Of a stretch of DNA of 64,000 nucleotides, positions 16,927-37,841 are shown piece by piece; position 1 is the first letter of the stretch; each line of letters starts with the position of its first letter. Below the pieces are notes generated by a model. It had not been told where the DNA came from. It saw only the letters and a program-made list of their open reading frames with translations, and did no database searches. The stretch comes from Nakamurella sp. (GTDB lineage Bacteria; Actinomycetota; Actinomycetes; Mycobacteriales; Nakamurellaceae): assembly GCA_044223435.1 (NCBI GenBank), contig JBGALY010000011.1, positions 66,787-130,786 of the forward strand. Reading direction: 5' to 3'. The translations under genes and the position numbers were made by a program.

Positions 16927-17910
16927 TCAAGGCAATTCCGGCCCGGCCGCGCCGGCGCCGGGCCGGTACCGGTCCGCCAGCGCGGCGGCCGCGGGCGCGT
17001 CGCACCGGTGGCCGGCCAGCACCACCCGGTGCCACAGCGCCCAGGTCGCGCCCGGGGTGAGGGTGAAGGCGGTGTCGAACGCCGGCGACGGGCAGAGCGC
17101 CGGAAACGCGCTGGTCCGGACGAACCAGCGCACCGGGACCGGCGCCGACGACCGGCCGGCGAACATCAGCACGGTCCCGCCGCCGTCGATTTCGTCGTGG
17201 TCACCGGCCACCGCGAGCCACTCGCCGGTCGACCCCATCGCCCCGTCCTCGTCGCCCGGCCCGGCCGGGGTCAGCACGTCGCCACCGGTCCACGCCCGCG
17301 GGCCGCGCCAGAACAGGCCGGTGTACCCGGCCCGCAGCCGGCCGAGGGTTGTCGGGCTGCCGACCACCAGCGGCCGGTCGCGCAGGTTCGTCAACCGGCT
17401 GGCCACGTCCAGCGCCCAGGTGTCGGCGGCCGGATCGACCCCGTGCACCCGCAGCGTCCGCCGCTCGGCCAGCCACGCCCGGCCGCCGGCCGTGAGCCAG
17501 GTCAGCCGCTCCCGGACGATCGCCGCACCCGGCGGCGCCGCGGCGCCACCGGCGATCAGGTCGAAGCCCTCGTGCCGTTGCCGGCCGTTGTTGTCCCGCT
17601 GCACGTACCCGTGCGGCGGGTCGGTCACGGTCGGGTCGAAGGTGGGCCCGCCCCAGAAGTTCTCCCCGGACAGGTGGGACAGTGTCAACTGCAACCCCTT
17701 GTGCCAGCGGTGATCCCACGGCCGGTAGGCGCTCAGCGGCGCGCCGCGCAGCGAGCGCAGCGGGAACATGTACGGCTTGACCGACTCGGTGACGGGCGCG
17801 ACCGGACGGAACACGTACCGCGCGATCTCCACCGCGCCGACGGCGACGGACAGGTGATCGGCGGCGATGGTCACGGCCGGGACCGCCCCGTTTCCGGATG
17901 CCTCAGCCAC
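16927..17910 (-). CDS. PmoA-family (DUF6807-like) protein
   Basis: 327 aa. It has KPYMFPLRSL.G.PL, RPWDHRWHKGLQLTLSHLSGENFWGG and GYTGLFWRGPRAW. It shows the typical pairing with a Gfo/Idh/MocA oxidoreductase. Confidence 0.7.
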   Translation of the reverse strand: MAEASGNGAVPAVTIAADHLSVAVGAVEIARYVFRPVAPVTESVKPYMFPLRSLRGAPLSAYRPWDHRWHKGLQLTLSHLSGENFWGGPTFDPTVTDPPHGYVQRDNNGRQRHEGFDLIAGGAAAPPGAAIVRERLTWLTAGGRAWLAERRTLRVHGVDPAADTWALDVASRLTNLRDRPLVVGSPTTLGRLRAGYTGLFWRGPRAWTGGDVLTPAGPGDEDGAMGSTGEWLAVAGDHDEIDGGGTVLMFAGRSSAPVPVRWFVRTSAFPALCPSPAFDTAFTLTPGATWALWHRVVLAGHRCDAPAAAALADRYRPGAGAAGPELP

Positions 17911-26235: not shown

Positions 26236-26412
26236 CTGATTGAACCAATCTTCTAAGGGACAGCGCTTCGCTGGGTCACAGCGGCCGGGACGGGGCGGGG
26301 TCGGTGGCCAGTCGATCTCGGACCATCCGAACAGACCGTCTACCGCTGAACAAAGAGTAAGGCACCTCGGACCATCTGTCCATACCCAAGACAAATTGTT
26401 AAGCTCGGCGGA

Positions 26413-27147
26413 GTGACCGGCCCGGGAGGAGCGAGGATGGCGAGTCAGAGTGTGCGAGCGACGGGCGGTGATGCCGCCGTCCCGGGCACGGTGGAAACCA
26501 TCGAGGAACTCCAGGCGCTGCTGGCCCCGGTGATGCGGGCCATCGCCACGGCCGTGGGGCCGCATTGCGAGGTCGTCCTGCATGACCTGTCCAGCCGGCA
26601 CGTCGATCTGCGGCACACCATCCGCGCCATCGAGAACCCCCAGGTGACCGGGCGATCCGTCGGGGGCCCGTCGACGAACCTCGGCCTGCAGGTCCTGCGG
26701 GACGAGGCGGCCGACCACAACGCCTTCGGCTATCGCGGCCAGACCGAGGACGGCCGGCAGCTGCACTGTTCATCGGTGTACTACCGCAACGCGGCCGGCC
26801 ACGTCATCGGCGCGCTCTGCGTCAACGTCGACATCACCCCGCTGCAGCACGCCCAGGCACTGATCGGTTCGCTGCTGCCCGCGACGGGGGCGGATACCCG
26901 GGCCAAGGAGACCCACGCCCCGGACATCGCGACCGTTTTCGACGCACTGTTCGAATCTGCGGTCGATGCGGTCGGCAAACCGGTCTCGATGATGGACCGG
27001 GCCGACCGGATGGACGTCCTTGCCACCCTGGATCAGCAGGGTGCCTTCGAGATTCGCCGGTCGGTCGAGCTCGTCTCGCGCCGCCTGGGCATCTCCAAGG
27101 TGACGGCCTACGCCTACCTCGACGAGCTGCGCAAAGCGGCTTCCTGA
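26413..27147 (+). CDS. YheO/DauR-like transcriptional regulator (PAS-like sensor plus C-terminal HTH)
   Basis: It has HCEVVLHDL...IRAIENPQVTGRSVG.P.TNLGLQVL and a C-terminal HTH VSRRLGISKVTAYAYLDEL. It is divergent from the RidA-to-kdgK operon. The start could be 26413 (GTG) or 26437 (ATG). Confidence 0.75.
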   Translation: MTGPGGARMASQSVRATGGDAAVPGTVETIEELQALLAPVMRAIATAVGPHCEVVLHDLSSRHVDLRHTIRAIENPQVTGRSVGGPSTNLGLQVLRDEAADHNAFGYRGQTEDGRQLHCSSVYYRNAAGHVIGALCVNVDITPLQHAQALIGSLLPATGADTRAKETHAPDIATVFDALFESAVDAVGKPVSMMDRADRMDVLATLDQQGAFEIRRSVELVSRRLGISKVTAYAYLDELRKAAS

Positions 27148-27290: not shown

Positions 27291-27680
27291 ATGACGGTGT
27301 TCCGCTCCAAGGATCAGGCGCAGGACCTGTTCGCCGAGCTGTTCCGGATCCTGCTCGACGATCCGGACTTCCGCACCCGGCTCCGGGAAAATCACCTCAC
27401 CGTCCAGATCATCCATACCAAGCCCGACTTCATCCTTCATCTCGATCCGGACGGGGTACGCATCGACGACGTCCCGGAAAAGCCCGTGATCAGCATCAAG
27501 ATGTCCTGCGACACCGCGCACGCCTTGTGGTCGGGAACCCTGCTCATGCCCCTCGCCGTCGCGACCGGCAAGCTACGGGTCCGCGGCAGCATGGCGAAGG
27601 TCCTTGAGTTCGCGCCCATGCTGCGACCGGCGTTCGACCAGTACCACCAGCTCGCCGCGGCCGCCGGCGTGCCCGGCTGA
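27291..27680 (+). CDS. SCP2 (sterol carrier protein 2-like) lipid-binding domain protein
   Basis: 129 aa: MTVFRSKDQAQDLFAELFRILLDDPDF...ISIKMSCDTAHALWSGTLLMPLAVATGKLRVRGSMAKVLEF. The C-terminal G.l...G segment is typical of SCP2. Confidence 0.75.
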   Translation: MTVFRSKDQAQDLFAELFRILLDDPDFRTRLRENHLTVQIIHTKPDFILHLDPDGVRIDDVPEKPVISIKMSCDTAHALWSGTLLMPLAVATGKLRVRGSMAKVLEFAPMLRPAFDQYHQLAAAAGVPG

Positions 27681-27969
27681 GGAGCCGTCGCTCGCCACGG
27701 TCGACCCGATCGGCCAAATCCGCGGCATGCCCGCGCTTGCCGTGCTCGGCGACCCGATCGATGTCCGTACCGGGGCCATCCCACCGTCCACCTGACTCCC
27801 GTTGCCGGAACGTCGGCCGGAACCGGTGCACCGTCGATCGGTGAACGCGCCCGGAGCGCGCGCCACCCGCGGATCGTGGTCGCCGCACTGCCGCTCACCA
27901 CCTTCACCACCGGACTTCCCGGTCCCGCCCGCTGCCCCGATCGACGCACCGTCGAAGGAGTTCACCCCG

Positions 27970-29196
27970 ATGACCACCGACCTCGCCCCGCTCGAACCGC
28001 TTCAACCGATCATCAGCCAGCCCGAGGACATCGAGGACCTGCGCCGGCTGGCCCGTGAGTTCGCCGTGACCCACGTGCGCCCCCGCGCGCTGGGCAACGA
28101 CGCCGCCCCGGCCGACCACTTCGACTGGGAGCTGGTCCGCATGGGACACGATCTGGGGTTGATGCGGGTGGTCATCCCTCGTGAGTACGGCGGTCTCGGC
28201 TTGGGCGAACTCGGCGTCGCCGTCGCGCTGGAGGAAATCGCCGCCGAATGTGCCGGCACGGCACTGATCTTCGGCGCCGCAATGTTGGGCCAGGCGCCGA
28301 TCCTGCTGTCGGCCGATCCGCAGCTGCAGGCCCGGTTCCTGCCGTTGTTCTCGGGCGACGAACCCGTGCTGGCCTGCAACGCGATCACCGAGGCCGACGC
28401 GGGGTGCGATCTGCTGATCCCGGAGAACGCGGAGCTCGCCCAGAACGTCATGACCGCCCGGCACGACGGGGACCATTACCTGCTCACCGGTGAGAAACGG
28501 TTCATCACCAACGGCAAGGTCGCCCACTATGCGACCGTCTTCGCCAACATCGAGGGCCGGCCCGGGGCAACCGGTTTGACCTGCTTCGTGGTACCGCTGG
28601 ACAGCCCGGGGGTGGAGCGTGGCGACGTCGCCGACAAGATGGGGTACCGGGCGTGCCTGGGCACCGAGCTGCGCTTCACGCAGGTGCGGGTGCCGGAGGA
28701 GAACATGATCGGCGGTGAGGGCGGCGGCGTGTACATCAACATCGCCCAGATGAACATGGCCCGCGCGGCCGTGGCCGCGATCTCGACCGGAATCGCCCGC
28801 AGTGCCTTGGATCTGGCCGTGCAATGGTGCGGGACCCGGATTCAGGGCGGCAAGAAGCTGCACGAACACCAGTTCACCGCGCGCAAGCTGGCCGAGATGT
28901 CGGCGAAGGTCGAGGCGTCCAGACTGCTGTACCTGCGGGCGGCGCATCTGGCCGACAACGAATTACCGGTGCCGGCCTTCGAACCCGCGGTGGCGAAGAT
29001 GTTCGCCGACCGGGCCGCCATCGAGGTGGCCGAGGAGGCGATGTCGCTGATGGGCGCGCGCGGCTACGTGAAGGAGTTCCGGCTGGAGAAGATCATGCGC
29101 GACGCCCTGGGTACCCGGATCTATGAGGGCACCCCGGAAGTGCTCGCCCTGGCCATCACCGACTCGATCTACCAGCCGGACGACGAGGGCTGGTAA
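27970..29196 (+). CDS. Acyl-CoA dehydrogenase family protein
   Basis: ATG at 27970 follows GAAGGAG. It has CNAITEADAGCD, GEKRFITNG and a C-terminal RDALGTRIYEGTPEVLALAI (catalytic Glu context). Confidence 0.85.
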   Translation: MTTDLAPLEPLQPIISQPEDIEDLRRLAREFAVTHVRPRALGNDAAPADHFDWELVRMGHDLGLMRVVIPREYGGLGLGELGVAVALEEIAAECAGTALIFGAAMLGQAPILLSADPQLQARFLPLFSGDEPVLACNAITEADAGCDLLIPENAELAQNVMTARHDGDHYLLTGEKRFITNGKVAHYATVFANIEGRPGATGLTCFVVPLDSPGVERGDVADKMGYRACLGTELRFTQVRVPEENMIGGEGGGVYINIAQMNMARAAVAAISTGIARSALDLAVQWCGTRIQGGKKLHEHQFTARKLAEMSAKVEASRLLYLRAAHLADNELPVPAFEPAVAKMFADRAAIEVAEEAMSLMGARGYVKEFRLEKIMRDALGTRIYEGTPEVLALAITDSIYQPDDEGW

Positions 29197-29232: not shown

Positions 29233-30135
29233 ATGTGTGAAGGTGAGACACGGGCCAGTACGGCCCGGTACGCACGCGACATTCTGGCCCTGCAGGACGG
29301 CCTGAACTTCCGCAGCCTGCTGGCGGTACCGCGCCACGACGTTGCCTACTACGCCCGGCGGCCCGGCGGACTGGTCACCCTGGGCCTGCGCACCGACCAG
29401 ATGTCCAAGCGATACCTGTTGGGTCTGCAGGGTTTCCGCCTGGCCCAGTATCTCCAGCTGGGCTGGGTCTGCCAGGACACGATCGCCGCCCGCGGATTGT
29501 TCTGTGAGCCCGTCCACGGCCTTCGAAATTCGGATCTGCACCTGGTCACCGTCTCGCCCGGCGGCGAGATCCTGGGATATCTCGGGCTTGTCGGCTCGTC
29601 CGACGAGGTACCCCGGTTGCTCCAGGACCCGGACCGGGCCCGGTTCCCGGTGGAGACGGCCCACGGAATCAACCTGTTCGATGTCGTTCCTCGGGACCGG
29701 GTGACCCGGACCGACCAGGTCGGGGAGCTCAAGAGATTCGTGCATCGCCGATCGATGTCGGACCGGATGCTGCGGTTACGCGTCACCCTCGAACTGCTCC
29801 TGGCCGCCGGCAGTCTCGTGCTCGGTCAGTCCGGCCTGCGCTTGGTGGTCGGCGATGTCGAGGAGCACGTCGCGCTGCGGCACCTGATGCTGGTGGGGCT
29901 GCAGGTCCGGCTGATCGAGGGCACCACGCCACAGCTCCGGTCCGGCGATTACCTGCACCTGGCCTACGTTCGGCGCGGTGCGGTCAAGCCGTTCATCGCG
30001 CAGGTGCCGGCGCATGAGGAGCTCGCGGCGCGGATGCGCCGGCTCGATCGCGTCCTGTCCGCCGAGGATCTGGGACTCGCGGTCCGCGATCTGATCGGCC
30101 GCGGGGACGGCACGATCAGCCGGGTGGCGGCATGA
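29233..30135 (+). CDS. Hypothetical acyltransferase, LuxI / N-acyl amino acid synthase-like (GNAT-fold) by motif resemblance
   Basis: ATG follows GGAGGGGGAG. 300 aa. FRLAQYLQLGW, CEPVHGLRNSDLHLVTVSPGGEILGYLGLV, ARFPVE and VGELKRFVHRRSM parallel the LuxI/NAS pattern (RLR..VF...LGW; E.D..D..S.H.L; lP.E; E.SRf.V). This is a motif-level call only. Confidence 0.4.
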   Translation: MCEGETRASTARYARDILALQDGLNFRSLLAVPRHDVAYYARRPGGLVTLGLRTDQMSKRYLLGLQGFRLAQYLQLGWVCQDTIAARGLFCEPVHGLRNSDLHLVTVSPGGEILGYLGLVGSSDEVPRLLQDPDRARFPVETAHGINLFDVVPRDRVTRTDQVGELKRFVHRRSMSDRMLRLRVTLELLLAAGSLVLGQSGLRLVVGDVEEHVALRHLMLVGLQVRLIEGTTPQLRSGDYLHLAYVRRGAVKPFIAQVPAHEELAARMRRLDRVLSAEDLGLAVRDLIGRGDGTISRVAA

Positions 30136-30989
30136 CGACGGCACCGACCGATTTCTACTCCGAGCTGACGGCGCGCAATACGGGTTTCATCTCGCCCCGC
30201 GCGCAGGGCCGGGTACGGGAGGCCACCGTGCTCGTCGCCGGGTGCGGGTCGACGGGGGGAGCCGCGGTCGAGCCCCTCGCCCGGGTGGGGGTGCAGCGGT
30301 TCATCCTCGCCGACAACGGCGACTACGAGCTGAACAATCTCAATCGCCAGCAGGCCGGAATCGCCGACATCGGACGCAACAAGGCCCTCGTGAATGCCGA
30401 ACGGGTCCGCTCGATCAATCCGCACGCCCGGGTGGACGTGCGAGTGGACGGGATCGCTCCGGGGACGGTGGACGATCTCGTCGGCCGCGCCGACGTGGTC
30501 GTCGACGGGGTCGATGTGACCGAGATGGCCGGGATGGCCGCCAAGTTCGCCCTGCACGAGAGCGCGGCCCGGCTGCGGGTGCCGGTGATCAGCGGGTACG
30601 ACATGGCCGGTCTGCAGTTCGTCCGCTGCTATGACTACCGCGCGGCGATGGCTCCGTTGGCGGGCGCCGTCGACCGGCGCCGCATCGAGCGGTCGACCCC
30701 CTGGGAATTGCTGGCCCGGCTCATCCCGAAGCGGGTGGTCCCGGTGGAGATGATCCGGTCCCTGCGGGGCGCTTCGGCCGACCCGGACTTCCACGTCTCC
30801 CAACTGGTCTACACGTCGATGCTGTTCGGCGCCATCACCACCCGGATGACCGTCGAGCTGCTCGCCGGGGTGCCGGTGCGGCGGAGCGTCCGGATCGACG
30901 TGCATCAGGCCGTGCGGCGTCCGTTGGCGAACCTCCGGTTGTCGGTGACCAAGCCGGTCGAGCTGATCCGGACGTTGAGGAGCCTGTAG
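30132..30989 (+). CDS. ThiF/MoeB/HesA-family E1-like adenylyltransferase (adenylation domain only)
   Basis: It has an ATGA overlap with the upstream gene. 285 aa. Nucleotide loop is VLVAGCGSTGGAAVEPLARVGV, followed by LADNGDYELNNLNRQ. There is no rhodanese or Cys-rich C-terminal domain. Confidence 0.8.
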   Translation: MTTAPTDFYSELTARNTGFISPRAQGRVREATVLVAGCGSTGGAAVEPLARVGVQRFILADNGDYELNNLNRQQAGIADIGRNKALVNAERVRSINPHARVDVRVDGIAPGTVDDLVGRADVVVDGVDVTEMAGMAAKFALHESAARLRVPVISGYDMAGLQFVRCYDYRAAMAPLAGAVDRRRIERSTPWELLARLIPKRVVPVEMIRSLRGASADPDFHVSQLVYTSMLFGAITTRMTVELLAGVPVRRSVRIDVHQAVRRPLANLRLSVTKPVELIRTLRSL

Positions 30990-30993
30990 GACG

Positions 30994-33405
30994 ATGGGTC
31001 GCCACCTGCGAAAGGTCACCGCTGCCGATCGGATGGTCGGCGTCCCACCGCGTAGCCGACGGCTGATCCTGGTCGGCTGGCTCGTCGTGGCCGCCCTGGC
31101 CGGGCTGTTCGCCCGCGGGCTGCCCGATCAGCTCAGCGGGGGTGGCTGGTCGGTGCCCGGATCGGAGTCCGAACGGGCGGCGGCCCTTGCGGCCGACGGG
31201 TTCGCCGGCCGCGGCGCGTCCACGGTGACGCTGGTCGTCACGGACACGACGGCCGAGCCCGGTTCGGCCGACTTCGACAGCCGGGTCGGTGCGGCCATCG
31301 CCACGGTCGCCGGCGACCCGACCCTCGACGTCCGGTCGCAATACGGTTGGGGCACCCTGTCGGCCGCCGCCCGGGCACCGTTCGTCGGATCGGACGGCCG
31401 AACGGTGATCGAGTATCTCGCGCTGGGCTTGGACGACGGGGACGCCCGGCGCGAGCTACCCGCCATCCAGTCGGAGCTGACCACCCGCTTCGCACCCAAC
31501 GGGCTGGAGGTCATCCTCGTCGGCACCGCCGCGTTCTGGGCCGAGGTCAATGCGCTGAGCGAGTCCGGCCTGGTCCGGGCCGAACTCATCACCCTGCCGC
31601 TGCTGATGATCATTCTCGTGCTGCTGTACGGCGGCGTGGTGGCGGCCGTCGTTTCGCTGGTGGTCGCCGGGTCCTCGATCGTGTTCACGTCGGCGTTGCT
31701 GTCCGTGGTAGCCGCCCAGGTCGAGTTGTCGGTGTTCGTGCAGAACACCGCGACGATGCTGGGCCTGGGCATCGGGGTCGACTACTCGCTGTTCATGATC
31801 AGCCGGTACCGCGAGGAGCTCCGCGCCGGGCGGGATGTCGACGCGGCGGTCGCGGCCGCCATCCGGACGTCCGGGCGCACGGTGTTCGCGTCGGGCGCGA
31901 CCGTCGTCCTCGCGCTGGCCAGCCTGTTCTTCATCCCGCTGAACGTCATCGCGTCGATCGCGCTCGGTGGGATCGTGGTGGTCGCCTTCTCGGTCTTCGT
32001 GACGACCGTGTTGCTCCCGCAACTGCTGCGGACGCTCGGTCGCCGGATCGACGCCGGCCGGCCTCCGTTCGTGCCCCGACCGTCGGATCGGCCGGCGGTC
32101 CGCTGGCAGCGCTTCGCGCTGCGCATCATGCGCCGGCCGGTGGTGTTCCTGCTCATCAGCGCGGCCGCATTGGCGGCAGCCGCGGCGCCGTCGGCCCAGC
32201 TGCGCACCTTCACGCCCGACGCCCGGATCGTGCCCACGGACTCGATCGTCCGGATGGGGTACGAGCGGGTGGCCGACGGGTTCGGACCCGGGGCGACCGC
32301 ACCGGTGCTGCTGGTGCTCGACTCGACCGACCCGCTGACCGTGGACGCGGCTGGCGGTCCGCTCGTGCAGTTGCGGGCGGCCCTGGCCGCGCTGCCCGGG
32401 GTGACGGCGGTCCGCTCCGTTCTGGACGTCGGCGACGCGGTGAACCCGGAGGCACCGGCGGTGGTGCTCGACCGGAGCGTGGCTGGGGCCATCGGGCCGG
32501 ACGGGCAGGCGACGATCGCGCACTACCTGTCCTCCGACGGGCGGCGAACCGTGCTCGAGGTCGTCGGAACCGACTACGCCGCGAGCGAGGCCTCGGTGCG
32601 ATTGCTCACGGACGTCCGGGCGACGGTCGACCGCATCGATGGCCCCTGGCGATCCTCGATCGGCGGGGAGACGGCGGAAGGTACCGACAGCAACCGGGTC
32701 ATCGACGACCACATGATTCAGGTCGTGGCGGTCATGTTGCTGGTGGTGTACCTGTTGCTGCTCATCACCTTCCGGTCGGTGATCCTGCCATTGAAGGCGA
32801 TCCTGATGAACCTGCTGTCGTTGGGTGCCACCTACGGCGTGCTGGTGCTGGTCTTCCAGCACGGCTGGGGCGGCGACTGGCTCGGCGGCGGTGCCCAGCA
32901 GGTGCAGAACTTCGTCCCGGTGCTGCTGCTGGCCCTGCTGTTCAGTCTGAGCACGGACTATGAGGTCTTCCTGCTCGAACGGGTGCGCGAGGAGTACCGG
33001 ACGACCGGGGACAACGAGCGCAGCGTGGCCGAGGCGCTGGCCCGGACGGCGCCACTGATCTCCGGCGCGGCCGTGCTGATGATCGCGGTGTTCGGCGCCT
33101 TCGCCTTCGCCGCGATCATGCCGATGAAGCAGCTCGGGCTCGGCATGGCGGTCGCGATCGCCATCGACGCCACCTTGATCCGGCTCGTCGTGGTACCCGC
33201 CTCGATGCGGCTGCTCGGCCGGTGGAACTGGTGGCCGGGCATCCGGCCGCCGCGGCGGCCGCGGCCCCCGGCACCGACCCGGCGGGCCACCGTGCGGACC
33301 CCGGTGGCCGGCACCGGGTCGGGCACCACCGAGGATGCCCGCCACTGCGACGACGACCCGGCAACGCCCGTCGGCCGGCACGCCCGGGTGACCGTCGGCG
33401 GCTGA
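30994..33405 (+). CDS. MMPL-family (RND superfamily) membrane transporter
   Basis: 803 aa with a duplicated 6-TM plus periplasmic-loop architecture. It has GVDYSLFMISRYREEL and STDYEVFLLERVREEY (paired MMPL motifs). The start could be 30994 or 31033. Confidence 0.9.
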   Translation: MGRHLRKVTAADRMVGVPPRSRRLILVGWLVVAALAGLFARGLPDQLSGGGWSVPGSESERAAALAADGFAGRGASTVTLVVTDTTAEPGSADFDSRVGAAIATVAGDPTLDVRSQYGWGTLSAAARAPFVGSDGRTVIEYLALGLDDGDARRELPAIQSELTTRFAPNGLEVILVGTAAFWAEVNALSESGLVRAELITLPLLMIILVLLYGGVVAAVVSLVVAGSSIVFTSALLSVVAAQVELSVFVQNTATMLGLGIGVDYSLFMISRYREELRAGRDVDAAVAAAIRTSGRTVFASGATVVLALASLFFIPLNVIASIALGGIVVVAFSVFVTTVLLPQLLRTLGRRIDAGRPPFVPRPSDRPAVRWQRFALRIMRRPVVFLLISAAALAAAAAPSAQLRTFTPDARIVPTDSIVRMGYERVADGFGPGATAPVLLVLDSTDPLTVDAAGGPLVQLRAALAALPGVTAVRSVLDVGDAVNPEAPAVVLDRSVAGAIGPDGQATIAHYLSSDGRRTVLEVVGTDYAASEASVRLLTDVRATVDRIDGPWRSSIGGETAEGTDSNRVIDDHMIQVVAVMLLVVYLLLLITFRSVILPLKAILMNLLSLGATYGVLVLVFQHGWGGDWLGGGAQQVQNFVPVLLLALLFSLSTDYEVFLLERVREEYRTTGDNERSVAEALARTAPLISGAAVLMIAVFGAFAFAAIMPMKQLGLGMAVAIAIDATLIRLVVVPASMRLLGRWNWWPGIRPPRRPRPPAPTRRATVRTPVAGTGSGTTEDARHCDDDPATPVGRHARVTVGG

Positions 33406-33429: not shown

Positions 33430-34050
33430 GTGATGACCATTTCCATCGCCATTCCCCGGTTCGCCCGGGCGACCGAGGGCGACCCCACCTGGGGCGTCTC
33501 CGCACCGTTGCAGGCTCACGAGCGGGCCAATCTGGCCGCCGTGACCACGGTCGCGGCGTTGTGGAACGAACGCGCCGTCGACGGCATCCTCGAGCACTAC
33601 GTGGACGGGATCGTCTGGCGCAACGTCGCGACCGGGGAAGTCCTGCGCGGCAAGACGCAGGTGGGGCAGTACCTGCACGAGTTGTTCAGCGCCGTGCCGG
33701 ACCTGTCGATGACGATCACCAGCCGGATCGCCCGGGGGCGGTTCGTCGCGGAGCAGTACGTCATCGCCGGGACCCATCTGGGCACCCTGTTCGGCATTCC
33801 GGCCACCGGGCAACCACTTCGATTGCCGGCGGCCAGCTTCGTCGAGATGCGCGACGGCAAGTTCCAGGAGGACCACTTCTATCTGGACGTCAACAGCCTG
33901 CTCGGTCAGATGGGCCTGATGCCGCCGGCGACCTTCACCCGCACCCGGCCGGGCCGGATCGGCATGGCCGTCGCGGTCTTCCTGCGATACCCGTGGCGCT
34001 CGCTGACCGGATCGCACCGGCGCCCGGCCCGGCCGCGGCCGGTCGACTGA
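33430..34050 (+). CDS. SnoaL-like / ester cyclase (NTF2-fold) protein
   Basis: It has AVTTVAALWNERAVDGILEHYVDGIVWRN, HLGTLFGIPATGQPLRLPAASFVEMRDGKFQEDHFYLD (ester-cyclase type). A hydrophobic, basic C-terminal tail follows. Confidence 0.7.
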   Translation: MMTISIAIPRFARATEGDPTWGVSAPLQAHERANLAAVTTVAALWNERAVDGILEHYVDGIVWRNVATGEVLRGKTQVGQYLHELFSAVPDLSMTITSRIARGRFVAEQYVIAGTHLGTLFGIPATGQPLRLPAASFVEMRDGKFQEDHFYLDVNSLLGQMGLMPPATFTRTRPGRIGMAVAVFLRYPWRSLTGSHRRPARPRPVD

Positions 34051-34111
34051 CCAGGTCGGGCGGCCGGGCCGCACCGAGACCCACCCACACGTGAAAGGGC
34101 GACACCGAAAC

Positions 34112-35761
34112 ATGGTTCAGAACAACGCCTCCGGCTATGACGTGATCGTCTACGGGACCGGCATCGGCGGTACCACCTGCGCGCTCACCCTGGCCCAGCA
34201 GGGCGCCCGCACCTTGCTGATGGAGAAGAACGAGTGGACCGGCGGGTACGCCCACGGCTCCGGCAGCCACGGGTTCTACTGGGACCACGGTGGGCACATC
34301 GTGCTCGCCTACGGTCTCGGCATGCCCACCCGGCAGATCTTCGAGCGGCTCGGGATCCCGGAGCGGATCGATATGATCCCCGAACGGATGGATTTCCGCT
34401 GCGTGTTCCCAGGCGAAGGGCTCGAACTGCCGGCGGATGTCACCGTGGCGGCCGAGCAGTTGGGCCGGCGGTTTCCCGCCGAACGGGACAGCATCGTGAC
34501 GATCTTTCAAACGATGCAGCAGGTCATCGACGACTTCCTCAGGTTGGTTCCCTCGTTCCGCGCGCCGCGGCGGCCGGACGAACGCCGGCCCTTCGACACG
34601 CTGCTCGAGCAGTTCCAGCGGCCCTGGCTCGGCGACGCGATCGCCCCGCTGGCCGGGTTGGTCCACTTCCCGGGGCACACCCTGTTGCGCTACCAGAACC
34701 GGACCCTGCAACAGCTGCTGGACGAGCATCTGACCGACCCGGAGGCCAAGGCCTATCTGTCGCAGATGTGTGTGGGGGTCGGCACCCCGCCCGACGAGCT
34801 GTCGGTGATGATGGCCAGCCTGTTCATGATTCACGCGATGCAGACGATGTGGCTGCCCCGCGGCGGTTTCGGCGCGCTGATCGACACCATGCTGCAAATG
34901 TTCAAGGAGGCGGGTGGGCAACTCGTGACCGGCGCCGAGGTGGACCGGGTGTGCCTGACCGACGGCCGGGCCACCGGTGTGCAGACCGTCGACGGCCGGC
35001 GCTTCGAGGCCAAGGCGGTGGTCTGCGCCTCGGACGCCCGCCGGCTGTTCGACCGGCAGCTTCCCGCCCGCGTCGTCCCGCGCCGGATGCGGCGCCGCCT
35101 CGCGACCGCGCCGACCACCCCGTCGTTCTTCCAGGTGCAGTTGGGTGTCGACCTCGATCTGAACCGGTACCGGGACACGCTCAAGCGCCTCAACTTCGTC
35201 TACCCGTCGTTCGACGTCAACACCGGCTGCCGGAACTTCGCCGCGGGCAACGTCGAGGAGGCCGCGTACTACCTCTACGTCGCCACCTTCCACCAACCGG
35301 ACATGGCACCGCCCGGAATGCACTCGATCAAACTCGAATGCCCGACCAACCTGGTCAGCACGGGCATCGACTGGGAGCGGGACAAGGAAGCGATTGCCGA
35401 CACCTTCATCCGGCGGTCCGAGGCGCTGATCCCCGATCTGCGCCAGCACATCGTGGTCCGCCGGGTGTTCACCCCGCTGGACATGGCCGGCACCACCAGG
35501 AATGCCGACGGGGCCTTCGCCGGGTGGGCCTTCGGGCCGGAGATGTTGAGTCGCCGACGCCCGGCCCAGCGGACCCCGGTGCCCGGACTGTATCTGGCCG
35601 GTCAGTGGACCCGACCCGCGGCGGGGCTGCCGGGCACGAGCGTCTCCGGGTACAACACGGCGGGCATGGTGCTGGCCGACGTCCTGGGCCGTACGGACTG
35701 GTTGGCGCCCGGCTCGTCCGCGATCGCCGACGGCGCGTCGGCGGACCCGGCCCGCCGGTAG
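34112..35761 (+). CDS. Phytoene desaturase-family (CrtI-like) NAD(P)/FAD-dependent oxidoreductase
   Basis: It starts MVQNNASGYDVIVYGTGIGGTTCALTLAQQGARTLLMEKNEWTGG (dinucleotide fold) and has C-terminal GLYLAGQWT.P.AGLPG. A GTG at 34091 is an alternative start. Confidence 0.8.
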   Translation: MVQNNASGYDVIVYGTGIGGTTCALTLAQQGARTLLMEKNEWTGGYAHGSGSHGFYWDHGGHIVLAYGLGMPTRQIFERLGIPERIDMIPERMDFRCVFPGEGLELPADVTVAAEQLGRRFPAERDSIVTIFQTMQQVIDDFLRLVPSFRAPRRPDERRPFDTLLEQFQRPWLGDAIAPLAGLVHFPGHTLLRYQNRTLQQLLDEHLTDPEAKAYLSQMCVGVGTPPDELSVMMASLFMIHAMQTMWLPRGGFGALIDTMLQMFKEAGGQLVTGAEVDRVCLTDGRATGVQTVDGRRFEAKAVVCASDARRLFDRQLPARVVPRRMRRRLATAPTTPSFFQVQLGVDLDLNRYRDTLKRLNFVYPSFDVNTGCRNFAAGNVEEAAYYLYVATFHQPDMAPPGMHSIKLECPTNLVSTGIDWERDKEAIADTFIRRSEALIPDLRQHIVVRRVFTPLDMAGTTRNADGAFAGWAFGPEMLSRRRPAQRTPVPGLYLAGQWTRPAAGLPGTSVSGYNTAGMVLADVLGRTDWLAPGSSAIADGASADPARR

Positions 35762-36232: not shown

Positions 36233-36904
36233 GTGGTCGTGGACGAGCAGCGGATCCGGGTGTGGTCGGACGGAGCCTGCCGGGGCAATCCCGGCCCGGG
36301 CGGTTGGGGTGCGCTGATCCGCGCGGCCGGACGGCCGGACGTCGAACTGTCCGGCGGCGAGGCGGCCACCACCAACAACCGGATGGAGTTGCGCGCGGTC
36401 GTGGAGGCACTGCGCAGTCTGCCCGATGGCACCGTGGTCACCGTGCACGCCGACTCCACCTATGTGCTCAACGGCATCACCAAGTGGCTGGTCGGGTGGC
36501 GTCGCAACGGTTGGTTGACCGGCAGCAAGCAGCCGGTCAAGAACGTCGACCTGTGGCAGGAACTGGACGAGCAAGCGAACCGGCACACGGTCGAGTGGCA
36601 GTGGGTGAAGGGCCATGCGGGCGACCCAGGAAACGAACGGGCAGACGCGCTGGCCAACGCGGGGGTGCCCGGCGGCATGGGCGAGGGTCCGGCCGGCGAC
36701 GGGCGTCCGGGCCGGCGCCGGCCCGCTCGCGGCCCGAGCACGTCGGGCACGTCGAGCACGTCGGGCAGCGCGGGCGGGTCCGGCGGGATGGCGGCCAGGT
36801 TCCCTGGCACCTGCCCGCAGTGCGCCGGCCGGATTGCCGTGGGGGATCGGATCCGCAAGGCCGGGCAGCAATGGGTATGTCTGGAATGCGACACGGCAGC
36901 ATGA
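36233..36904 (+). CDS. rnhA: Ribonuclease HI with low-complexity linker and C-terminal CxxC...CxxC zinc-ribbon tail
   Basis: It has [40 protein letters not shown] and [17 protein letters not shown]. The tail is [30 protein letters not shown]. The start is uncertain: GTG at 36233 is chosen, and the track ORF starts at 36116. Confidence 0.8.
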
Positions 36905-36953
36905 CCGGTGTCGAGCCCGGACGCGATCAGCACGCACAAGGGGGAGGGGACGG

Positions 36954-37841
36954 ATGACCGATTCATGGCCCGAACTGCCGGTCGCCGGCTGGGCGGACAC
37001 CCGGGACACCGTGCAGCTGTGGACCCAGATCGTCGGCAAGGTGCGGCTGGCTCTGGCCCCGCCGGAGAACCACTGGTGGCAGGTCCCGCTGTACGTGAAT
37101 GCCTCCGGCCTGACCACCTCCCTGATGCCGTACCGGGACGGCGGTGTGGAGGTGGAGTTCGACTTCGTCGGCCACGAGCTGATCGTGCGCACGACGCACG
37201 GCGAGACTGCATCCTTCCCGCTGGCCCCGATGGCGGTCGCGGACTTCTACCACAGGTTCCGGCGGGTGCTCGAGGAGCTGGATGTCGATGTGACGATCGT
37301 GCCGCGACCGGTCGAGCTGCCGGTGGCGATCCCGTTCGCCGAGGACCGTACGCATCACAGCTACGACCCGGACGCGATGCACCGGTTCTGGATCTCGCTG
37401 GTGAGCGCCCAGCGAGTGTTCAGTCGCTTCCGGGGCGAGTACTCGGGCAAGTGCAGCCCCGTCCACTTCTTCTGGGGGGCATTCGATCTCGCCGTTACCC
37501 GGTTCTCCGGCCGAGGTGCGCCGACCCACCCGGGCGGCGTTCCCAACTGCCCCGACCGGGTCATGCATCTGGCCTACGACCGGGAACTGGCGTCCTGCGG
37601 TTACTGGCCCGGCGGTGCAGCCGAGGGCGCGTTCTATGCCTACGCCTACCCGGAGCCTCCCGGCTACCGGGAGTACCCCATCCGGCCTCGGGACGCATCG
37701 TTCGACCCCACGCTGGGCGAGTTCCTGCTCCCGTATACCGCCGTGCGTACAGCGGCCGACCCGGATGCCTACCTGTTGGAGTTCCTGCAGTCGGCGTTCA
37801 CCGCCTCGGTCGAACTCGCGCGGTGGCCGGCGATCGAGTGA
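36954..37841 (+). CDS. DUF5996-family protein
   Basis: ATG at 36954 follows GGGGGAGGGGA. Product starts MTDSWPELPVAGWADTRDTVQLWTQIVGKVRLALAPPENHWWQVPLYV and includes HFFWGAFDLAVTRFSGR. Confidence 0.7.
   Translation: MTDSWPELPVAGWADTRDTVQLWTQIVGKVRLALAPPENHWWQVPLYVNASGLTTSLMPYRDGGVEVEFDFVGHELIVRTTHGETASFPLAPMAVADFYHRFRRVLEELDVDVTIVPRPVELPVAIPFAEDRTHHSYDPDAMHRFWISLVSAQRVFSRFRGEYSGKCSPVHFFWGAFDLAVTRFSGRGAPTHPGGVPNCPDRVMHLAYDRELASCGYWPGGAAEGAFYAYAYPEPPGYREYPIRPRDASFDPTLGEFLLPYTAVRTAADPDAYLLEFLQSAFTASVELARWPAIE

Follow-up and report, generated by a model that had tools for sequence, protein, structure and literature searches.

Introduction

Acyl-oxazolones are a lipid class that was discovered only in 2020-2025 (bioRxiv 10.1101/2020.06.11.147165; PMC10404671). 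OxzAB, TyzACB, and TrzAS are described as systems that combine a synthase with a ThiF-type cyclase (bioRxiv 10.1101/2020.06.11.147165; PMC10404671; PMC12856293). In this study, a gene pair of comparable type was analyzed in a 64,000-nucleotide stretch (the window) of contig JBGALY010000011.1 from the actinobacterium Nakamurella sp. The open reading frame (ORF) under study, called X here, lies at 29233..30135 on the plus strand and encodes a 300-amino-acid acyltransferase of predicted LuxI/FeeM fold, a putative N-acyl amino acid synthase. Most likely, X and its ThiF neighbor make a fatty-acyl amino acid lipid related to the bacterial oxazolones.

In Pseudoalteromonas rubra, OxzA N-acylates tyrosine with acyl-CoA, and OxzB, a ThiF-nitroreductase fusion, cyclizes and desaturates the OxzA product with ATP (bioRxiv 10.1101/2020.06.11.147165). 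The C12-tyrazolone of M. tuberculosis is made by three enzymes, TyzA, TyzB, and TyzC (Rv2336, Rv2338c, and Rv2337c, respectively). TyzB is a stand-alone ThiF homolog, TyzC is a nitroreductase-family oxidase, and mmpL9 adjoins the genes (PMC10404671). TrzA and TrzS, the latter a fusion of ThiF and a nitroreductase-type desaturase (FDO), belong to the Rv1356c/Rv1355c family and lead to tryptazolones (PMC12856293). Furthermore, the stieleriacine, kyonggic acid, and thalassotalic acid clusters contain trios of synthase, ThiF, and nitroreductase (PMC12479983).

The X cluster resembles the Tyz system in its acyltransferase of about 300 amino acids, annotated as hypothetical, whose nearest structures are FeeM and the CoA-dependent LuxI-type synthases (PMC10404671), in its stand-alone ThiF-like enzyme of about 300 amino acids, and in the adjoining MMPL gene. 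As in the Trz system, the acyltransferase gene is located directly upstream of the ThiF-type cyclase gene. However, TrzS is a ThiF-FDO fusion, whereas the ThiF of the window stands alone, and X is about 50 residues longer than TrzA and shares no significant sequence similarity with it. TyzA and OxzA are likened to X by description and not by sequence. Unlike the Tyz system, the X cluster has no TyzC-type nitroreductase or FDO, which was found in none of 81 sequences (80 related genome loci and the window, within about 8 kb). It has instead a strictly co-conserved acyl-CoA dehydrogenase (ACAD), a mostly co-conserved SCP2 protein, and SnoaL-like and CrtI-like genes. X and its ThiF partner fit the oxazolone scheme because the fold, the lack of annotation, the gene pairing, and the kind of adjoining transporter are the same. 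By this analogy, the pair would represent a nitroreductase-less, ACAD/SCP2-containing variant of the acyl-oxazolone pathway with a synthase-plus-ThiF mechanism, which we consider moderately probable.

Conserved core and predicted fold of X

X shows the pattern of a genuine high-GC gene, with GC contents of 0.76, 0.45, and 0.84 at the first, second, and third codon positions. It starts with ATG, and a GGAGG Shine-Dalgarno sequence is found about 10 nucleotides 5' of this codon. At E <= 1e-3, 99 relatives were retrieved from 5.8 billion proteins, nearly all of about 300 amino acids. Those with names are all annotated as "hypothetical protein" and belong to Geodermatophilus, Marmoricola, Humibacillus, Lapillicoccus, Streptomyces, or related actinobacteria. 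The first-pass annotation, made from the DNA letters, had read X as a possible LuxI or N-acyl amino acid synthase homolog in a high-GC actinobacterium. This setting was borne out by the regional GC content of 0.64-0.75 and by the actinobacterial origin of the named homologs.

Five motifs had been quoted in that annotation, and all are present in the translation: FRLAQYLQLGW at residues 68-78, CEPVHGLRNSDLHLV at residues 91-105, GEILGYLGLV at residues 111-120, ARFPVE at residues 136-141, and VGELKRFVH at residues 163-171. In an alignment of 43 X homologs that are 36-71% identical to the query, 19 positions are invariant, and 10 of these are inside the motifs (F68, R69, Y73, E92, H103, G111, E141, E165, and R168) or just after one (H144). 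Because 10 of the 19 invariant positions fall in or directly beside them, the motifs are confirmed at the alignment level as the conserved core of a real protein family, beyond chance. In a wider alignment of 48 sequences (21-55% identity), H103, G111, E141, and P253 are still invariant, and R69, R135, E165, G207, and F254 are at least 90% conserved.

Profile searches did not connect X to a known family. Pfam gave only a sub-threshold TetR_C_6 match, and NCBIfam gave no match. The Autoind_synth, FeeM, and Acetyltransf_5 models matched neither X nor any of the 43 homologs at E <= 1. In scans of the whole genome, PF00765 (Autoind_synth) found nothing, and PF21926 and PF13444 did not pick X at E up to 10. 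As a control, the Autoind_synth model scored 287 bits on TraI of pTiC58. X thus differs in profile both from the LuxI-type N-acyl homoserine lactone (AHL) synthases (LasI, TofI, RpaI, MesI, BjaI, and TraI; PF00765) and from the FeeM type (PF21926 and PF13444). Searches of PDB sequences with X, by phmmer and by two profile searches, returned chance matches only, such as a lectin and BBS1, all with E values of 0.02 or higher. An X domain was suspected at the N terminus (300 residues) of the 989-amino-acid NCBIfam model PRK14852, and this idea was dropped because X gives no match to the model.

An AlphaFold2 model of X built on the 43-sequence alignment was confident (mean pLDDT 89.5, pTM 0.89). 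When it was structurally aligned against 48,161 PDB representatives, the four best matches were AHL synthases. EsaI scores 11.3, and ordinary acetyltransferases of the GCN5-related (GNAT) fold fill the list at about 10-12. In a Foldseek search, LuxI-type synthases occupied 7 of the 10 top rows, and the other three were a histone acetyltransferase chain of SAGA and two AAC(2')-Ia chains. A language-model search, which used no alignment and no structure, placed the Autoind_synth and FeeM/Acetyltransf_5 clusters nearest among the annotated families (0.91-0.92). The modeled X has three layers and shows both the LuxI-type variant of the GNAT fold and a FeeM-like fold, and about 45 additional residues at either end distinguish it from the LuxI-type enzymes. 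These results support a predicted fold in the LuxI/FeeM branch of the GNAT fold. The proposed kinship with the LuxI and N-acyl amino acid synthase clade is therefore supported on the structural side, where LuxI-type matches were obtained, although it failed on the profile side, where Autoind_synth, FeeM, Acetyltransf_5, and all NCBIfam models, which would include TIGR03694, were silent even at E 1-10.

The same structural matches raise the question of whether X is a true AHL synthase, which would join an acyl donor with S-adenosylmethionine, release methylthioadenosine, and provide an actinobacterial LuxI-type signal. Beyond the four best structural matches, R69, Y73, and W78 resemble the R...F...W pattern of LuxI, and E165-x-x-R168-F resembles E-x-S-R-F. 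An hhalign comparison of the X family with a TraI-family profile was not significant (E 0.086, probability 0.66%); the test is weak, since the TraI-family alignment is narrow (68-81% identity, among the 120 closest proteins listed). This non-significant alignment pairs X with TraI at H103/Y55, G111/G63, G115/G67, E165/E101, R168/R104, and F169/F105, which is the same pairing of motifs to the LuxI pattern as the first-pass annotation had drawn. In LuxI, the N-terminal acidic pair and the core-strand Arg have a role in S-adenosylmethionine and substrate binding. However, in the same alignment, whose N-terminal part was made by eye, D46 (nearly invariant) and D49 (invariant) of TraI fall on the variable X positions 94 and 97, and the core-strand R70 falls on the non-conserved G118, so that neither the acidic pair nor the Arg appears to be conserved in register in X.

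The gene context points away from AHL synthesis as well. None of the X neighbors (YheO-type PAS/helix-turn-helix regulator, SCP2, ACAD, ThiF, MMPL, SnoaL, and CrtI-like) is a LuxR-type autoinducer receptor. Some Streptomyces loci encode LuxR-family proteins, but these contain receiver domains and are response regulators. In place of the LuxR partner of LuxI enzymes, X has a conserved ThiF partner, which is typical of N-acyl amino acid synthases and not of LuxI enzymes. Together with the missing Autoind_synth match at lax thresholds, this makes AHL synthesis very improbable, and X is probably not an AHL synthase. The earlier expectation of a chemistry other than classical AHL synthesis agrees with the lack of an adjacent receptor and with the pairing, and sometimes fusion, of X with a ThiF-type enzyme like that of the oxazolone-pathway synthases. 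The most fitting description of X is a new family of N-acyl amino acid synthases that has the LuxI/FeeM fold and is invisible to profiles.

ThiF partner of X

The gene downstream of X (30132..30989, plus strand) overlaps the X stop by 4 nucleotides and encodes a ThiF/E1-like adenylating enzyme of 285 amino acids, a putative ATP-dependent cyclase. Its G37-C-G-S-x-G43, N71-R-Q73, and D125-G-V-D128 motifs are invariant in 30 ThiF sequences and align with the ATP-site motifs of TcdA. The best structural match of the enzyme is AclA (9egb). The Rv1355c-family model matches it at 2.9e-20, below the cut-off because the FDO half is missing.

The same genome holds a canonical trzAS-type pair on another contig (C2:39206-42126; locus L180:1474-4412). 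It consists of a ThiF-nitroreductase fusion, with 918 bits on the Rv1355c-family model, and a TrzA-like acyltransferase of 254 amino acids encoded directly upstream. A GGDEF/EAL-like gene adjoins this pair. Among the three ThiF-family genes of the genome, the ThiF domain of TrzS is the nearest to the window enzyme (38% over 130 amino acids, E 1e-13), and a MoeZ-like ThiF shows 29% (E 4e-11). A separate, canonical Acetyltransf_5 protein (PF13444, 105 bits) of about 267 amino acids is encoded at C31:24691-25011 (locus L083) and may be an N-acyltransferase of the OlsB/FeeM type.

Conservation of the core locus and fused forms

To compare gene order, 80 related loci from species-representative genomes were searched with the window proteins. 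An ACAD gene is directly upstream of X in 78 loci (47-77% identity), the two misses being at contig ends (L029 and L079). The ThiF gene is beside X in 78 loci as well, again with misses at contig ends (L009 and L018). An SCP2 homolog is upstream of ACAD in 67 loci. Thus, the conserved core is SCP2-ACAD-X-ThiF. MMPL, SnoaL, and CrtI-like genes accompany it in 25, 20, and 7 of the 80 loci, respectively.

In the window, the SCP2 gene (27291..27680, plus strand) encodes a lipid-binding protein of 129 amino acids with a Pfam SCP2 match of 2.8e-4, just over the cut-off. The ACAD gene (27967..29196, plus strand) has a frame open from 27802 with the likely start at ATG 27967, and its product contains three ACAD Pfam domains (1e-39, 3e-20, and 5e-19). 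Among solved structures, its closest relatives are short- and medium-chain acyl-CoA dehydrogenases (3e-61), and it contains the YEG motif, which holds the catalytic Glu.

At least three forms of the locus surround the core. In the window-type form, MMPL is present, SnoaL and CrtI-like genes are optional, and a protein with a solute-binding and a von Willebrand A domain (SBP-VWA) often lies between X and ThiF (16 loci). This insert is about 560 amino acids long and contains SBP_bac_11 and von Willebrand A domains (L005:8911-10620, L015:10223-11902, and 14 more of the 80 loci). The Streptomyces/Nocardia/Kitasatospora form has an AurF-like di-iron protein (25/80), DUF4873 (24/80), a dienelactone hydrolase (19/80), and TetR (16 loci). 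L036:9754-11886, L051:9573-11731, and about 20 more loci of these genera show the core followed by AurF-like, DUF4873, dienelactone hydrolase, and TetR (TetR_C_41) genes. One Streptomyces form is the core only. The exporter-less Streptomyces/Nocardia/Kitasatospora architecture may lead to a different end product, and the dienelactone hydrolase would suit the hydrolysis of an unsaturated five-membered lactone-like ring.

These accessory genes bear on the product of the cluster. X could make an N-acyl amino acid or aminolipid for which ThiF forms no oxazolone and activates the carboxylate for another fate. A side-chain nucleophile could close a lactone or lactam, a second building block could be attached as an ester or amide, or hydrolysis could lead back to a dehydro-N-acyl amino acid. 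The ACAD, SCP2, CrtI-like, SnoaL, AurF-like, DUF4873, and dienelactone hydrolase genes are indeed different from those of the known pathway. PMC12479983 reports no oxazolone from the stieleriacine, kyonggic acid, and thalassotalic acid trios and calls the role of ThiF enigmatic, and PMC12596934 describes many kinds of post-adenylation chemistry among ThiF-family enzymes. However, the only characterized small-molecule ThiF enzymes (OxzB, TyzB, and TrzS) are oxazolone cyclases, and TrzS is the nearest paralog of the window ThiF in its own genome. A route without an oxazolone is considered unlikely.

A profile search of 1.84 billion representatives identified 296 X relatives, including longer proteins, and 18 long or unusual forms were scanned for additional domains. 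Three of the 18 are fusions of X and ThiF, which occur in both orders (ThiF-X in P0172 and P0206, X-ThiF in P0230), and P0172 comes from Bermanella sp., a gammaproteobacterium. Whereas OxzB joins ThiF to a nitroreductase, these fusions join ThiF to the acyltransferase itself. Twelve of the 18 carry one or two C-terminal cyclic nucleotide (cNMP)-binding domains; one of these 12 adds FAD_binding_4, and another adds a methyltransferase domain.

The cNMP-fused type was followed in 80 metagenome loci, with a scan built on an 8-sequence subset. Partners beside these distant X homologs include MMPL (32-35% identity), SnoaL (44-50%), CrtI-like (53-61%), and ThiF (45-48%). MMPL is present in 11 of the 30 longest loci. 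An Acg-type nitroreductase together with a major facilitator superfamily (MFS) transporter is beside 4 of the 80 (L125, L126, L131, and L142), and neither ACAD nor SCP2 is found in the metagenome loci. In L141 the cNMP domain is also fused to a ThiF enzyme, and in L113 and L109 it is fused to a patatin-like phospholipase; GAF, subtilase, and NHL-cupredoxin genes adjoin. In these loci, the whole lipid module seems to be wired to a cyclic nucleotide.

Such domains also suggest that X could acylate proteins or peptides in concert with an E1-like enzyme, as a lysine acyltransferase of the Pat type under cyclic-nucleotide control or as a part of a ubiquitin-like conjugation system. Mycobacterial Pat carries a cNMP domain as do 12 of the 18 scanned X homologs, the C-terminal domains of these homologs match the Pat model NF058543, and Foldseek lists Rv0998 (4avb) at E 2.9e-4 for X. 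Moreover, proteins, peptides, or tRNA are the targets of most ThiF/E1 enzymes (PMC12596934). We regard this reading as improbable.

Proposed function

For the oxazolone-type pathway, we infer the chemical steps, substrates, and product as follows. X would take a fatty acyl group from a thioester donor, acyl-CoA or acyl-ACP, and attach it to the alpha-amino nitrogen of an amino acid, and the invariant Glu165 on the central strand of X is the candidate base. The SCP2 protein would hold the acyl-CoA or a lipid intermediate. A carrier role would agree with the binding of fatty acyl-CoAs by SCP2 proteins, which is established for the mammalian one. The MMPL transporter would deliver the product to the envelope or export it from the cell.

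Desaturation, if any, would be performed by the strictly co-conserved ACAD or by the CrtI-like flavoprotein in place of a nitroreductase-type enzyme. In mycobactin assembly, the ACAD-family acyl-thioester dehydrogenase MbtN works with the GNAT-fold N-acyltransferase MbtK, which transfers the 2-enoyl chain to an amine. Similarly, the window ACAD may convert the acyl chain of the acyl-CoA donor to its 2-enoyl form, or it may act on the activated ring. Alternatively, ACAD or the CrtI-like enzyme may act on the amino-acid part. The MbtN model matches the window ACAD weakly (1.3e-12). Unlike the MbtN/MbtK system, the X cluster has no carrier protein or fatty-acyl-AMP ligase, and its ACAD is closer to ordinary acyl-CoA dehydrogenases. 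Because the nitroreductase is absent while ACAD is always present, the most economical reading would be that a different flavoenzyme supplies the unsaturation.

Several results weigh against this pathway. The first is the absence of the nitroreductase-type desaturase from all 81 sequences. Second, searches with Pfam, NCBIfam, and TrzA provided no sequence-level link of X to any characterized enzyme. The blastp comparison of X with the TrzA of its own genome gave E 2.8, hhalign of the two families gave E 0.024 with a probability of 2%, and neither of the two hidden Markov models found the other family among 22,915 ORFs of the genome. Third, the ACAD is a canonical enzyme of the short- and medium-chain type, so a role on an oxazolone ring would be unprecedented, and it may have a role unrelated to ring chemistry. 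Fourth, a ThiF gene is present in only 5 of the 30 longest metagenome loci of cNMP-fused X, and therefore X can work without an adjacent ThiF. Finally, since the genome already contains a trzAS pair, the X cluster should make something different.

The non-significant hhalign alignment of X and TrzA is colinear over 154 columns and places E165 of X on the invariant E139 of TrzA. The TrzA family itself has no Pfam match in any of 10 members. X is a sequence family separate from TrzA with the same fold.

The literature search found no paper on the SCP2/ACAD/X/ThiF variant. The main text of PMC12856293 mentions neither acyl-CoA dehydrogenase nor Streptomyces nor SCP2, and that of PMC12479983 does not mention acyl-CoA dehydrogenase.

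Other genes of the cluster and transcription

X is the fourth of eight genes on the same strand, seven of which are tightly spaced. Downstream of ThiF, an MMPL-family transporter of the resistance-nodulation-division (RND) type (30994..33405, 803 amino acids; Pfam MMPL 3e-83) is a putative exporter of the lipid product. It is followed by a SnoaL-like protein of the NTF2 fold (33430..34050, 206 amino acids; Pfam SnoaL 5e-20) and by a CrtI-family, phytoene-desaturase-like flavin oxidoreductase (34091..35761, 556 amino acids; Pfam Amino_oxidase 4e-29), all on the plus strand. The CrtI-like protein matches NCBIfam crtI_fam at 1.8e-46, below its cut-off, and the PDB phytoene dehydrogenase 4dgk at 1.4e-33.

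Upstream of the core, a YheO-like regulator with PAS and helix-turn-helix domains is encoded at 26413..27147 on the plus strand (Pfam PAS_6 6e-33, HTH_22 9e-19). Its membership in the operon is doubtful, and a YheO-like regulator was found beside X in none of the 80 related genome loci. Two further genes near the cluster encode a DUF5996 protein (36615-37841, 427 bits) and a DUF6807 protein (16927-17910, 231 bits).

RNA contigs from four metatranscriptome libraries of one study begin at 27297-27305, at the SCP2 start, and reach 34704 or 36701 with a depth of 55-289. The stretch directly upstream (26367-27100) is covered at a depth of 0-7 in three libraries, and the remaining one shows 22-36. 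Such depths are a rough measure, and DNA may have been carried over. Because of this contrast in depth between the operon and the upstream regulator stretch, the operon is likely transcribed.

Distribution of the X family

The X family is rare and patchy. It is present in at least 84 actinobacterial species genomes, and fused forms occur in soil metagenomes and in a gammaproteobacterium. Among 400 further genomes sampled evenly across the phylum, no X was found at E <= 1e-10, a soft negative for which only 5 first-look candidates per genome were scored. The 3.7-kb core was found in sludge, bioreactor, and biofilm data sets.

Within the genus, a first sample of 24 other genomes contained X in one (G412). 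This copy, at C11:139742-140633, is split over two frames (model positions 7-188 and 183-308), which reflects either a pseudogene with a frameshift or a fault in the assembly. In a sample of the order, X was found in G444 of the same genus, in G557, and more distantly in G468. The total was 5 of 201 genomes, including the source genome (G000) and a weaker match in G553, which lies inside a 1608-amino-acid frame (E 1.4e-4) and looks spurious.

Implications

X represents a third acyltransferase family that pairs with a ThiF cyclase and is undetectable by sequence. It would escape genome mining that relies on ThiF-nitroreductase pairs or on Pfam annotation of acyltransferases, because the flavin desaturase used to recognize such clusters is lacking. 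Similarly, InterPro-based surveys gave the picture of no LuxI in actinobacteria (PMC5539150), and this picture leaves out LuxI-fold enzymes that are invisible to profiles. The exporter, TetR, dienelactone hydrolase, and cNMP domains provide testable handles on the purpose of the lipids.

A more far-reaching proposal, which we consider unlikely as a whole, is that SCP2-ACAD-X-ThiF constitutes a nitroreductase-independent route to new heterocyclic or dehydro lipids derived from acyl amino acids, in which an ACAD-fold flavoenzyme and a lipid carrier would replace the FDO and the products would be exported (MMPL) or sensed (by TetR in the Streptomyces/Nocardia form, and in the soil-metagenome form by the cNMP domains fused to X, ThiF, and a patatin lipase). 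If true, it would reveal in actinobacteria a family of diffusible or envelope signal lipids that are made on a LuxI-like scaffold and are chemically distinct from AHLs.

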